A program made the position numbers and the translations under genes. Positions 23,038-28,130 of a DNA stretch of 64,000 nucleotides are shown here, in pieces. This DNA is from a plasmid. The notes below the pieces were generated by a model. That model was given only the letters and a program-made list of their open reading frames with translations, did not search any database and had not been told where the DNA came from. Numbering within the stretch: the stretch's first letter is position 1; each line of letters opens with the position of its first letter. The stretch is taken from the sequence record NZ_CP099764.1, one strand, 5' to 3'.

Positions 23038-23656
23038 CTATGGAATATCTGCGTAAAGCTCTGTCAGCTCAGCAATAAACGCACCTAGCGTCATTAGCTC
23101 AGCTCTCACCGCCTCCGGGTATTTTTTGTGCAGAGATGATGGCACGACCAATCTGACACCCGACTCCCGCATCTCCCGATATTGAGCCAGAGAAACTCCC
23201 TCCTGGAGTGTAAACAGATGCACCTGATGAATTTTATCGGCCTCATTCAGTATCTGACGCCAGCGATCCTTACAGGTAGTCTTGACTGCCAGCATGCGCA
23301 GATTTTCTACGGGAAACTCAGTATCGTGGTAAGCCCCTGCGGAAGGGAAAAGGAAATCGGGTTTTTTATTACCTTCTGTGATGGCCTGCGTCGAAAAGTG
23401 TCGCAGGCCGTGCTCAATGAATAGATGCTCCAGGTGCAGTTCCAGCGACTTCCCGGCTCTGGATTTACGGCGATTGCTGACAGAATTGGCCAGCGCAATA
23501 AATTCATCCACAGAGCCAAATCCTTTCCGGATGATATCCAGAACATGCAGTTCCTCAACCAATAGAAATATGTCGTACTCCACGCGCCGGCGGTCAAGAA
23601 GTTGCTCATCCGGATCAAGGGAATTTTTCACATAATGGCTGGCTGCATACTGAATA
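23038..23656 (-). pseudogene. ecoRIIR: EcoRII-like restriction endonuclease gene, C-terminal segment (interrupted at 23656 by ISEcp1 unit)
   Basis: Convergent with the Dcm-like MTase; reading frame continues across the 4.2-kb insertion into 27860-28130. Confidence 0.7.
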
Positions 23657-23842
23657 CCTAGATTCTACGTCAGTACTTCAAAAAGCATAATCAAAGCCTT
23701 GATAAATATGCATTCCTTCGAAATTCAGCTTTCACCCATTGGGTGAAAGAAAAGTGCTCAAAAATATGTTAAATTATCAGCTTTTATGACTCGATATATG
23801 GTAAAATAATAGTAAGAAAAGTAGTAAAAAGGGGTTCTAATT

Positions 23843-25105
23843 ATGATTAATAAAATTGATTTCAAAGCTAAGAATCTAACATCAAATGCAGGTCTTTTTC
23901 TGCTCCTTGAGAATGCAAAAAGCAATGGGATTTTTGATTTTATTGAAAATGACCTCGTATTTGATAATGACTCAACAAATAAAATCAAGATGAATCATAT
24001 AAAGACCATGCTCTGCGGTCACTTCATTGGCATTGATAAGTTAGAACGTCTAAAGCTACTTCAAAATGATCCCCTCGTCAACGAGTTTGATATTTCCGTA
24101 AAAGAACCTGAAACAGTGTCACGGTTTCTAGGAAACTTCAACTTCAAGACAACCCAAATGTTTAGAGACATTAATTTTAAAGTCTTTAAAAAACTGCTCA
24201 CTAAAAGTAAATTGACATCCATTACGATTGATATTGATAGTAGTGTAATTAACGTAGAAGGTCATCAAGAAGGTGCGTCAAAAGGATATAATCCTAAGAA
24301 ACTGGGAAACCGATGCTACAATATCCAATTTGCATTTTGCGACGAATTAAAAGCATATGTTACCGGATTTGTAAGAAGTGGCAATACTTACACTGCAAAC
24401 GGTGCTGCGGAAATGATCAAAGAAATTGTTGCTAACATCAAATCAGACGATTTAGAAATTTTATTTCGAATGGATAGTGGCTACTTTGATGAAAAAATTA
24501 TCGAAACGATAGAATCTCTTGGATGCAAATATTTAATTAAAGCCAAAAGTTATTCTACACTCACCTCACAAGCAACGAATTCATCAATTGTATTCGTTAA
24601 AGGAGAAGAAGGTAGAGAAACTACAGAACTGTATACAAAATTAGTTAAATGGGAAAAAGACAGAAGATTTGTCGTATCTCGCGTACTGAAACCAGAAAAA
24701 GAAAGAGCACAATTATCACTTTTAGAAGGTTCCGAATACGACTACTTTTTCTTTGTAACAAATACTACCTTGCTTTCTGAAAAAGTAGTTATATACTATG
24801 AAAAGCGTGGTAATGCTGAAAACTATATCAAAGAAGCCAAATACGACATGGCGGTGGGTCATCTCTTGCTAAAGTCATTTTGGGCGAATGAAGCCGTGTT
24901 TCAAATGATGATGCTTTCATATAACCTATTTTTGTTGTTCAAGTTTGATTCCTTGGACTCTTCAGAATACAGACAGCAAATAAAGACCTTTCGTTTGAAG
25001 TATGTATTTCTTGCAGCAAAAATAATCAAAACCGCAAGATATGTAATCATGAAGTTGTCGGAAAACTATCCGTACAAGGGAGTGTATGAAAAATGTCTGG
25101 TATAA
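23843..25105 (+). CDS. tnpA: ISEcp1 transposase (420 aa)
   Basis: MINKIDFKAKNLTSNAGLFLLLENAKSNGIFDFIENDLVFDNDSTNKIKMNHIKTMLCGHF... Confidence 0.95.
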   Translation: MINKIDFKAKNLTSNAGLFLLLENAKSNGIFDFIENDLVFDNDSTNKIKMNHIKTMLCGHFIGIDKLERLKLLQNDPLVNEFDISVKEPETVSRFLGNFNFKTTQMFRDINFKVFKKLLTKSKLTSITIDIDSSVINVEGHQEGASKGYNPKKLGNRCYNIQFAFCDELKAYVTGFVRSGNTYTANGAAEMIKEIVANIKSDDLEILFRMDSGYFDEKIIETIESLGCKYLIKAKSYSTLTSQATNSSIVFVKGEEGRETTELYTKLVKWEKDRRFVVSRVLKPEKERAQLSLLEGSEYDYFFFVTNTTLLSEKVVIYYEKRGNAENYIKEAKYDMAVGHLLLKSFWANEAVFQMMMLSYNLFLLFKFDSLDSSEYRQQIKTFRLKYVFLAAKIIKTARYVIMKLSENYPYKGVYEKCLV

Positions 25106-25164
25106 TAAGAATATCATCAATAAAATTGAGTGTTGCTCTGTGGATAACTTGCAGAGTTTATTAA

Positions 25165-26592: not shown

Positions 26593-27468
26593 ATGGTTAA
26601 AAAATCACTGCGTCAGTTCACGCTGATGGCGACGGCAACCGTCACGCTGTTGTTAGGAAGTGTGCCGCTGTATGCGCAAACGGCGGACGTACAGCAAAAA
26701 CTTGCCGAATTAGAGCGGCAGTCGGGAGGAAGACTGGGTGTGGCATTGATTAACACAGCAGATAATTCGCAAATACTTTATCGTGCTGATGAGCGCTTTG
26801 CGATGTGCAGCACCAGTAAAGTGATGGCCGTGGCCGCGGTGCTGAAGAAAAGTGAAAGCGAACCGAATCTGTTAAATCAGCGAGTTGAGATCAAAAAATC
26901 TGACTTGGTTAACTATAATCCGATTGCGGAAAAGCACGTCGATGGGACGATGTCACTGGCTGAGCTTAGCGCGGCCGCGCTACAGTACAGCGATAACGTG
27001 GCGATGAATAAGCTGATTTCTCACGTTGGCGGCCCGGCTAGCGTCACCGCGTTCGCCCGACAGCTGGGAGACGAAACGTTCCGTCTCGACCGTACCGAGC
27101 CGACGTTAAACACCGCCATTCCGGGCGATCCGCGTGATACCACTTCACCTCGGGCAATGGCGCAAACTCTGCGTAATCTGACGCTGGGTAAAGCATTGGG
27201 TGACAGCCAACGGGCGCAGCTGGTGACATGGATGAAAGGCAATACCACCGGTGCAGCGAGCATTCAGGCTGGACTGCCTGCTTCCTGGGTTGTGGGGGAT
27301 AAAACCGGCAGCGGTGGCTATGGCACCACCAACGATATCGCGGTGATCTGGCCAAAAGATCGTGCGCCGCTGATTCTGGTCACTTACTTCACCCAGCCTC
27401 AACCTAAGGCAGAAAGCCGTCGCGATGTATTAGCGTCGGCGGCTAAAATCGTCACCAACGGTTTGTAA
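26593..27468 (+). CDS. blaCTX-M: Class A extended-spectrum beta-lactamase CTX-M group 1; CTX-M-1 backbone (V77, D114, S140, N288) with Gly240, consistent with CTX-M-32; 80-bp spacer from ISEcp1 IRR
   Basis: 291-aa protein; diagnostic residues [32 protein letters not shown]. Confidence 0.9.
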
Positions 27469-27514
27469 TAGCGGAAACGGAATGGGGAAACTCATTCCGT
27501 TTTTGTTTATCGCC

Positions 27515-27871
27515 TTAGACGGCAAAAGCGCTGTCGCCCACCTGCGCTTGCGCATACCAGGCCATAAGCTCCGTGGTTCCTGGTTCTCCTTCCGCTGGCG
27601 CCCAGTGCGCATAGTCATCGGCAGCCACGGGTTGATAGCCACCGTGTTTTACTTCAAAAATTATGCCACCGGTATCCAGCGACAGCACGGCATGCCAGGT
27701 TCCTGCGGCCATCTCCAGCACCGTACAGGTTTCCCCCAATATCGCCCGATGGGTGACGGTACCCCGATCGTCAAAATTCAGCACCACGAAACGACCCCTT
27801 AATGGCAACAGTAGTTCGAAGGTGTGAGGGTGTCGGTGCGGGCGCACGTAGGTTCCTGGGAATAATTTCAC
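27515..27871 (-). CDS. wbuC: Cupin-fold metalloprotein WbuC (orf477) downstream of blaCTX-M; start may be non-ATG/truncated at the transposition-unit end
   Basis: MKLFPGTYVRPHRHPHTFELLLPLRGRFVVLNFDDRGTVTHRAILGETCTVLEMAAGTWHAV... Confidence 0.75.
   Translation of the reverse strand: MKLFPGTYVRPHRHPHTFELLLPLRGRFVVLNFDDRGTVTHRAILGETCTVLEMAAGTWHAVLSLDTGGIIFEVKHGGYQPVAADDYAHWAPAEGEPGTTELMAWYAQAQVGDSAFAV
27846..27859. repeat. Alternative ISEcp1 IRR-like sequence (acgtaggttcctgg) marking right end of the 4203-bp transposition unit; followed by TSD GAATA
   Basis: 10/14 match to inverted IRL; 5-bp GAATA present at 23652-23656 and 27860-27864. Confidence 0.6.
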
Positions 27872-28130
27872 TTCCCGACGGAAAGCGCAGGTGCCAGTCT
27901 TCAGGTAGAATATATTTATGATTTACTGGCGCTTGCTGTAGAGATAGTCCGCCTAGAATCTGTCCTGCGGGGCCGGATATAAGCGCTCCGGGTATAACTT
28001 CACCAATAGCGGTCTCAATGACGTCCTCTTCATCAGTGCTGGCGCATACCCAAATATTTACTTCCTTACAGTCCCCCCCTTGCTCATCAAGCTTGAAAGC
28101 TAGGAGCGTCAGAGCACCTGTATTTTCAGG
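27860..28130 (-). pseudogene. ecoRIIR: EcoRII-like restriction endonuclease gene, middle segment (continues 23038-23656 across the ISEcp1 unit; 5' part removed by IS26)
   Basis: Minus-strand frame ...PSGSEII joins ...QYAASHYVKNSLDPDEQ when the insertion plus one TSD copy is removed. Confidence 0.7.

Follow-up and report, generated by a model that had tools for sequence, protein, structure and literature searches.

The window analysed here is a 64,000-nucleotide stretch of the plasmid sequence record NZ_CP099764.1, in which a 4,203-bp transposition unit of ISEcp1, carrying the extended-spectrum beta-lactamase (ESBL) gene blaCTX-M-32 and itself containing a copy of ISKpn26, interrupts ecoRIIR, the gene for the EcoRII restriction endonuclease; the gene for the cognate methyltransferase, ecoRIIM, lies intact beside it. 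Very probably, an ISEcp1 unit inserted into ecoRIIR on an IncN-type backbone, the disrupted allele spread, and an IS26-associated loss of DNA followed later, leaving a dead restriction gene and a retained methylase.

The unit occupies positions 23657 to 27859 on the plus strand, from the left inverted repeat (IRL) of ISEcp1 to a surrogate right inverted repeat (IRR). At the left junction, which reads ...TGCATACTGAATA/CCTAGATTCTACGT, the 14-bp IRL CCTAGATTCTACGT (23657–23670, plus strand) is preceded by the bases CTGAATA; at the right junction, ...GCGCACGTAGGTTCCTGG/GAATAATTTC, the surrogate IRR ACGTAGGTTCCTGG (27846–27859, plus strand) matches the inverted IRL at 10 of 14 positions and is followed by GAATAATTTC. 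This is the sole 14-mer with at least 9 of 14 matches to the inverted IRL between 26513 and 27900, i.e. over the 1.39 kb downstream of the authentic ISEcp1 IRR, ACGTGGAATTTAGG (26499–26512, plus strand; 12 of 14), which lies 80 bp upstream of the bla start codon. The 420-aa transposase gene is intact (23843–25105, plus strand) and belongs to the IS1380 family (Pfam DDE_Tnp_1_4, 2e-55; NCBIfam transpos_IS1380, 329.6 bits with a cutoff of 180; PGAP WP_000608644.1 in identical records). The pentamer GAATA flanks the unit at 23652–23656 and again at 27860–27864. An IRL, a transposase, a distant surrogate IRR, a 5-bp target duplication and evidence of movement, the features of an ISEcp1 unit of the IS1380 family, are all present. 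A preliminary description of this DNA had proposed a 4.2-kb ISEcp1-mediated unit with a 5-bp duplication, its IRL starting at 23657 after GAATA and its IRR-like end at 27859 before GAATA; both ends are read directly from the sequence, and the proposal is borne out by an empty site.

The empty site is found in the IncN plasmid pRHB42-C09_2, which carries an intact copy of the locus (L003). Window positions 21190–23656 equal positions 2834–5300 of that locus at 100% identity, positions 27860–28130 equal 5296–5566, again at 100%, and the two alignments overlap by exactly 5 bp, 5296–5300, which read GAATA. The pentamer is single in the intact gene, with no tandem duplication there, and the two fragments are contiguous. 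The 566-bp reconstructed empty site is also uninterrupted in 1,884 PLSDB plasmids. The 5-bp overlap and the single GAATA of the intact gene mark the target duplication as real; we therefore rejected a chance pentamer on the strength of that overlap at 100% identity and the 1,884 uninterrupted sites.

Joining 23038–23656 to 27865–28130, which removes the unit together with one GAATA copy, restores one open minus-strand frame of 294 amino acids with its stop at 23038; as had been proposed, it reads ...FPSGSEII/QYAASHYVKNSLDPDEQ..., and across the joint ...FPSGSEIIQYAASHYVKNSLDPDEQ.... The rejoined fragments align consecutively with residues 111–404 of R.EcoRII (PDB 1NA6; E = 3.4e-196, 292 of 294 residues identical), agree without a mismatch with the 404-aa product of the intact IncN locus from its residue 111 onwards, and comprise the full Pfam EcoRII-C domain (6.9e-71) with the last third of EcoRII-N. 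The interrupted gene, at first termed EcoRII-like, is on these alignments that of EcoRII itself, a type IIE enzyme, with 100% DNA identity to the IncN copies. The insertion point falls between codons 200 and 201 (I200 and Q201), about 18 residues into the EcoRII-C domain as delimited by the structure 3HQG (183–404). The 3' fragment (23038–23656, minus strand; codons 201–404 and the stop; 100% identical to the pRHB42-C09_2 copy), which yields the EcoRII-C match and aligns with both 1NA6 and 3HQG, is the catalytic domain minus the first ~18 residues of the 3HQG construct; the middle fragment (27860–28130, minus strand; codons 111–200; EcoRII-N profile positions 99–152) holds the end of the EcoRII-N effector domain and the linker. 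A complete, expressible 404-aa open reading frame (ORF) is absent, codons 111–200 and 201–404 lying 4.2 kb apart, and by its structure ecoRIIR in the window is a pseudogene.

The methyltransferase gene ecoRIIM (21571–23004, plus strand) encodes an intact 477-aa C5-cytosine methyltransferase, M.EcoRII, of the Dcm type (Pfam DNA_methylase, PF00145, 1e-78; DNA_meth_N, PF18284, 4e-28; NCBIfam PRK10458, 945 bits with a cutoff of 710). The protein is full length; it has DNA_meth_N at its N terminus and the catalytic motifs conserved in C5 methyltransferases, FAGIGG, PCQPFS, ENV, QHRER and GNSV being visible in the translation. The gene and about 380 bp upstream of it are 100% DNA-identical to the pRHB42-C09_2 locus, and the gene is identical to that of the IncN loci encoding WP_001288435.1, which agrees with the intact 477-aa Dcm/M.EcoRII-like gene reported earlier. 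It converges with ecoRIIR, also as reported, across a spacer (23005–23037) that measures 33 bp between the two stops (23004 and 23038), not the 34 bp first given; the spacer contains a 7-bp stem, CTCCCGG/CCGGGAG, at 23011–23032, for which a terminator scan gave no call. The backbone order of the pRHB42-C09_2 locus is kikA, a small endonuclease-like ORF, a hypothetical ORF, an IS1 remnant, ecoRIIM, ecoRIIR, resP and repA. The IncN layout ascribed to the locus thus stands, its comparison with this IncN ecoRII locus giving 100% identity, but the replicon that hosts it is of the IncFIA/FIB/FIC type.

That the window might be an IncN plasmid was rejected on two grounds: its flanks match IncFIA/FIB/FIC plasmids, and it encodes F-type TraI and TraD (NCBIfam). 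The replicon is an F-type multiresistance plasmid with an IncN-derived segment, and sul2, aph(3')-Ia, aph(6)-Id, aph(3'')-Ib and tet(B) are present in the window (Tet(B) as assigned by NCBIfam). On the left, 11600–23656 matches the IncFIA/FIB/FIC plasmid pSH696_117 of S. Heidelberg at 100% identity over ~12 kb; on the right, 28951–34000 matches pFAM21845_1 of E. coli at 99.98% over ~5 kb. Both relatives have strAB, IS10, a Tn10 remnant consisting of tetR-tet(B)-tetC-truncated tetD, an IS1 remnant, ecoRIIM, an intact ecoRIIR and IS26, which indicates that the IncN-derived restriction-modification segment was already in the F-plasmid lineage.

At its 5' end ecoRIIR meets a copy of IS26 (28131–28950, plus strand; 820 bp, 14-bp inverted repeats, tnp26 at 28194–28898). 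IS26 does truncate the gene, as the preliminary description said, but 28130, the position it gave, is the last ecoRII base; codons 1–110 and the upstream region have been replaced. The flanks of the element, TTTTCAGG and CCTTTCAG, contain no 8-bp duplication such as marks a simple insertion, and the element is inverted relative to the IS26 of pSH696_117 and pFAM21845_1. Compared with pFAM21845_1, 559 bp are missing on the ecoRIIR side (codons 1–110 and the upstream region) and 3,361 bp on the right, which cover a DUF4198 gene and all but a 5' remnant of a TonB-dependent haem/haemoglobin receptor gene; this remnant, of ~73 codons, persists at 28951–29171 (minus strand) and is 99.98% identical to the intact gene of pFAM21845_1. 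Because the 8-bp duplication is lacking and adjoining DNA is missing relative to these plasmids, the IS26 at 28131–28950 is, as its flanks read, an IS26-mediated rearrangement junction and not a simple insertion. We rejected the view that the truncation at 28130 is part of a shared module: ecoRIIR runs past that point in the loci L001, L004 and L007, and the truncation is therefore specific to the lineage of the window. BLAST coverage ended at 28130 only because the window departs from those loci there. The junction of truncated ecoRII with IS26 was found in none of the GTDB representative genomes or JGI metagenome contigs, and no PLSDB plasmid gave a contiguous match over truncated ecoRII, IS26 and the truncated TonB receptor gene.

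As a consequence, ecoRIIR survives as two promoterless pieces, its first 110 codons and upstream region gone, and at the level of its sequence the gene cannot make EcoRII. The frame of the middle fragment continues into the unit, where it meets a stop after 31 foreign codons. In the 3' fragment the first in-frame start is a GTG at V208, preceded by CAGCCAGCCATTAT, which holds no Shine-Dalgarno-like motif; since the N-terminal part is missing, no obvious ribosome-binding site stands before the GTG and no promoter is known for it, this fragment is probably inactive as well. No EcoRII activity would then be left, and both the post-segregational killing and the restriction of incoming DNA exerted by the system would be lost. 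Methylation of CCWGG by M.EcoRII, by comparison, should persist, because neither ecoRIIM nor the region upstream of it differs from functional copies. That restriction is dead and methylation retained is a sound deduction from the sequence. Loss of the endonuclease with retention of the methylase should be harmless to the host, and the chromosome of dcm+ enterobacteria is protected anyway. E. coli Dcm has the same CCWGG specificity as EcoRII (PMC3424554, PMC4924334) and is described as protecting against EcoRII parasitism (PMC3424554). With this shared specificity, the endonuclease would already be ineffective as an addiction module in dcm+ hosts and the plasmid methylase redundant, which would explain why the insertion is tolerated.

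The cargo of the unit had been listed as IS5, blaCTX-M and wbuC. The first is indeed a member of the IS5 family, specifically ISKpn26 (25165–26360, minus strand; 1,196 bp; inverted repeats GGAAGGTGCGAA.../...TTCGCACCTTCC; so named by PGAP in 100%-identical records), with a 326-aa transposase at 25312–26292 recognized as an IS5 transposase by both Pfam and NCBIfam and a TTAA target duplication at 25161–25164 and 26361–26364; a length of ~1.2 kb, terminal inverted repeats, a DDE transposase and a 4-bp duplication are all found. Subtracting ISKpn26 and one TTAA returns ISEcp1 to its canonical 1,656 bp. Within ISEcp1, ISKpn26 lies between tnpA and the IRR in the opposite orientation, and because it inserted there the promoter hexamers were kept: a pattern match to the ISEcp1 outward promoter, TTGAAA-18 nt-TACAAT (26409–26438, plus strand), lies downstream of it. 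The ISEcp1 outward promoter is known from the literature to drive blaCTX-M, and the copy in the window would be expected to do the same. The bla gene (26593–27468, plus strand; 291 aa; NCBIfam blaCTX-M, 621.8 bits) is blaCTX-M-32, its DNA being 100% identical to that of records typed as this allele, at 100%, by AMRFinderPlus. Finally, wbuC is present only as a 5'-truncated remnant (orf477/wbuC; 27515–27859, minus strand; NCBIfam cupin_WbuC, 4.5e-28, profile positions 42–132 of 132), cut at the unit boundary; the listed ORF extends beyond that boundary to a GTG that happens to lie at 27871, inside ecoRII DNA.

The insertion is widespread. The left junction between ecoRIIR and the IRL occurs at 100% identity in 19 PLSDB plasmids, mostly of 32–49 kb; their sources, in Cuba, the UK and other places, are pigs, poultry and farm environments. 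Among those inspected, pRHEcCUB-1 and pRHB03-C04_3 are IncX1 plasmids and pUR5084 is typed MOBP/MPF_I; the IncX1 carriers have an IncN-derived backbone. At least 35 records, pMOO-32 and several plasmids of 214–252 kb among them, have the right junction between the surrogate IRR and ecoRIIR, again at 100% identity. Identical junctions at this level of identity point to one ancestral insertion event. No ecoRII/ISEcp1 junction was found in the GTDB representative genomes. Two side observations concern the later fate of the inserted DNA. In the 44,007-bp IncX1 plasmids from UK farms (pRHB03-C04_3, CP058054.1), 459 bp of ISEcp1 beside the ISKpn26 end, corresponding to window 24706–25164, are gone, in what looks like an ISKpn26-adjacent deletion truncating the ISEcp1 tnpA. 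The records NZ_CP074044.1 and NZ_JBXRYN010000002.1 match the window only to 23661, five bases into the IRL; NZ_CP074044.1 retains the right junction, and in it ISEcp1 seems to be almost wholly deleted with blaCTX-M-32 still in ecoRIIR.

Two related units help to order these events. The IncI1 plasmid pH2291-112 (NC_025176.1; locus 2408–6610) carries the same 4,203-bp ISEcp1::ISKpn26 unit near the shufflon, 99.8% identical, with ISKpn26 in the same place and the same surrogate IRR end, and with blaCTX-M-1; it is flanked by TAAAA(A), a TAAAAA direct repeat of 6 bp as read where 5 bp are expected. On this evidence ISKpn26 seems to have been inside ISEcp1 already when CTX-M-1 was turned into CTX-M-32. 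The epidemic IncHI2 plasmid pMOO-32 (NZ_MK169211.1; locus 4408–11898) carries a 7,491-bp ISEcp1 read-through unit flanked by TACCA, which continues past the first surrogate IRR into GAATA, the 5' part of ecoRIIR, resP and the IncN iterons and ends ...GTGTGGAAATTCGC/TACCA; the IncN homology stops at the far end of the unit. That the pMOO-32 unit includes the ecoRIIR 5' part and further IncN DNA shows that the insertion into ecoRIIR happened on a true IncN backbone, from which the pMOO-32 unit was launched, and its own 5-bp duplication shows that the ISKpn26-bearing ISEcp1 stayed competent for transposition afterwards. The ISEcp1::ISKpn26-blaCTX-M-32 structure, with ISKpn26 oppositely oriented inside ISEcp1, has been described for pMOO-32 (10.1101/845917); neither that paper nor the announcement of pRHEcCUB-1 (PMC6883113) mentions the restriction gene. 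In the literature searched we found no paper stating explicitly that the CTX-M-32 unit interrupts ecoRIIR; the sequence records contain that insertion.

These observations can be assembled into a history. An ISEcp1 already bearing ISKpn26 would have mobilised blaCTX-M and, downstream of it, 391 bp of Kluyvera-derived DNA in the way usual for ISEcp1, in which the transposase uses the IRL, skips the true IRR and takes a weak IRR-like sequence further downstream. The 4,203-bp unit would then have entered ecoRIIR between codons 200 and 201 on an IncN-type backbone, duplicating GAATA, severing the catalytic C-terminal domain from the rest of EcoRII and leaving ecoRIIM untouched. The disrupted allele would have spread, reaching the F-type plasmid by homologous recombination between the ecoRII sequences of co-resident plasmids, which is the most economical route because close F-type relatives hold the same IncN-derived segment with an intact ecoRIIR. 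A later IS26-associated rearrangement would have removed ecoRIIR codons 1–110, the upstream region and neighbouring backbone genes. Several points weigh against this account. One sequence does not separate the recombination route from an independent insertion at the same site; the order of events in the window's lineage, ISEcp1 insertion and then IS26 truncation, is one that we infer; and the expected intermediate is missing, since no public record in PLSDB or among the complete E. coli RefSeq genomes has both the truncated-tetD and the ISEcp1 junctions. Most of the catalytic domain survives in the coding sequence of the 3' ecoRIIR fragment, and a consensus promoter scan upstream of ecoRIIM yielded nothing convincing, in a region identical to that of functional IncN copies.

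The unit might instead have transposed directly into the ecoRIIR of an F plasmid, at the same GAATA as in the IncN, IncX1 and IncHI2 plasmids, in which case the site would be a hot spot. F-type relatives with an intact ecoRIIR do exist and are 100% identical on the left side, the ISEcp1 tnpA is intact and demonstrably active in this lineage, and ISEcp1 prefers AT-rich pentamers. The same unit, however, lies at unrelated sites elsewhere, TAAAA(A) in IncI1 and TACCA in IncHI2, which speaks against a strict site specificity; identical flanks extend for 2.4 kb to the left of the unit and for no less than 271 bp to its right; and the same position and orientation at 100% identity in at least 19–35 plasmids is more simply explained by descent and recombination, so that we consider repeated insertion unlikely. 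A more radical proposal is that IS26 placed blaCTX-M-32 here, the ecoRIIM-blaCTX-M-32 module being an IS26 translocatable unit or pseudo-compound transposon and GAATA incidental to its arrival. The region has clearly been reshaped by IS26, which directly abuts the right end of the module and in pUR5084 lies 3 bp from its left end. Nevertheless, the window has no IS26 on the left, where the boundary between truncated tetD and the IS1 remnant is common to relatives without blaCTX-M; the interruption of ecoRIIR is unambiguously due to ISEcp1, given the IRL, surrogate IRR, 5-bp duplication and empty site; and the IS26 of the window lacks an 8-bp duplication and is tied to loss of DNA, not gain. 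Placement by IS26 is therefore, in our judgement, very improbable.

Different questions concern whether the locus amounts to an orphan methylase and nothing else. The 3' fragment (residues 208–404) could be expressed as a nuclease without its N-terminal domain, or ecoRIIM could be silent. A 197-aa GTG-start ORF does survive and covers most of the EcoRII-C construct of 3HQG, EcoRII lacking its N-terminal part is catalytically active in vitro (autoinhibition), and ecoRIIM has no strong consensus promoter in the scan. Set against this, the fragment begins only ~25 residues into the EcoRII-C construct, no Shine-Dalgarno-like motif precedes its GTG (CAGCCAGCCATTAT), the native ecoRIIR promoter is gone and no outward promoter is known at the IRL end of ISEcp1; as for the methylase, the gene and 380 bp upstream are base-identical in ~1,900 plasmids whose endonuclease gene is intact, a state that would be lethal if the methylase were inactive. 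Either departure from the orphan-methylase reading is extremely unlikely. It is also conceivable, though with a decidedly small chance of being right, that the endonuclease-minus, methylase-plus state was selected and not merely tolerated. A conjugative resistance plasmid bearing M.EcoRII alone would then pre-methylate itself and its host at CCWGG, could enter recipients bearing EcoRII or IncN plasmids, coexist with them and neutralise their post-segregational killing in dcm-negative hosts, and the ISEcp1 insertion in ecoRIIR would have helped the blaCTX-M-32 module to spread over IncN, IncX1, IncI, IncHI2 and IncF plasmids. A weaker variant would have the surviving EcoRII-C fragment expressed as an autoinhibition-free nuclease. 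Nothing in the analysis points to selection of the orphan state over simple tolerance.

The surroundings of the ecoRII segment bear on how it came to an F-type plasmid. To the left of the IncN-derived segment, the Tn10 remnant ends in the truncated tetD (20849–21189, plus strand), with tet(B) and tetC annotated in the 100%-identical relatives L005 and L009. It is followed by the IS1 remnant (21190–21482, minus strand; ~293 bp, ~90% identical to IS1A; PGAP 'IS1 family transposase'), which begins GGTAATGACTCCAACTTA and belongs to the IncN backbone upstream of ecoRIIM, where it has the same place in the IncN locus of pRHB42-C09_2 and also in L001, L002 and L004. As a side observation on this stretch (20849–21482), tetD is cut exactly at the terminal inverted repeat of the 293-bp IS1 remnant. 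The junction of truncated tetD and IS1 remnant is common to 12 PLSDB F-type plasmids of E. coli and Salmonella, and the ISEcp1 junction is present in 0 of the 12. There are hints here that an IS1-end-mediated event may have first brought the IncN restriction-modification segment into the F lineage. The outer neighbours of the window's segment, truncated tetD on the left and IS26 with the truncated TonB gene on the right, occur together in no record searched. Only this local IS26-bounded mosaic was not found elsewhere; the insertion allele itself is already in dozens of public plasmid sequences.

Further afield, window positions 1–20100 and 47665–61528 also hold a Tn3-family transposase gene, IS4-family (IS10-like) copies and traI/traD, and the listed gene content of the 128-kb IncFIA blaCTX-M-32 plasmid p114 of Salmonella (PMC9973847) resembles that of the window. 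An intact EcoRII restriction-modification pair is found near ISEcp1-blaCTX-M-15 in many IncF-type plasmids of K. pneumoniae, and EcoRII has been reported within an IS26-bounded dfrA14 module (PMC13514068); the IncN EcoRII segment is thus often carried along in IS26 mosaics.

The locus reveals no new mechanism or kind of element, being a textbook ISEcp1 unit in a textbook plasmid restriction-modification system. It is a clear example of a mobile element turning such a system into an orphan methylase with the host unharmed. The small added value lies in the lineage: a single IncN origin, read-through into IncHI2, and spread into IncX1, IncI-type and IncF plasmids. The blaCTX-M-32 module of livestock-associated plasmids would descend from one ISEcp1 insertion into an IncN ecoRIIR, its carriers including IncX1/N hybrids, the IncHI2 plasmid pMOO-32, an IncI-type (MOBP/MPF_I) plasmid and the F-type plasmid of the window. 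The ecoRIIR::ISEcp1 junctions are a convenient lineage marker, of value mainly for annotation and epidemiology.

Set beside known systems, the unit resembles the ISEcp1-blaCTX-M units of the IS1380 family, which use one-ended or surrogate-IRR transposition, in its IRL, intact tnpA, IRR, surrogate IRR and 5-bp duplication. With the ISEcp1::ISKpn26-blaCTX-M-32 units of pMOO-32, pRHEcCUB-1 and pUR5084 it shares the whole unit sequence and the ecoRIIR junctions; in pMOO-32, unlike the window, the 5' part of ecoRIIR is included in a longer unit of 7.5 kb, and the window differs from all three in its F-type host and in its outer neighbours, truncated tetD on one side and IS26 with the truncated TonB receptor gene on the other. 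The EcoRII restriction-modification system of IncN plasmids has the same gene order, convergent orientation and 33-bp spacer, and every base retained in the window is that of pRHB42-C09_2; in contrast to that system, the endonuclease gene is split at codon 200/201 and lacks codons 1–110, and only the methylase gene is whole. Like the orphan Dcm-type methyltransferases, E. coli Dcm and that of the IncN plasmid pK18An, which carries ecoRIIM without ecoRIIR (PMC4635468), the window has a gene for a C5 methylase of the CCWGG type and no functional nuclease to partner it, but its orphan state is recent and the cause, ISEcp1 insertion with IS26 truncation, is still visible. Closest in their backbone are pSH696_117 and pFAM21845_1, which share with the window the left-hand stretch of strAB, IS10, Tn10 remnant, truncated tetD, IS1 remnant and ecoRIIM, and which differ from it in their intact ecoRIIR without the ISEcp1 unit, in the opposite orientation of IS26, and in their intact DUF4198 and TonB-receptor genes.

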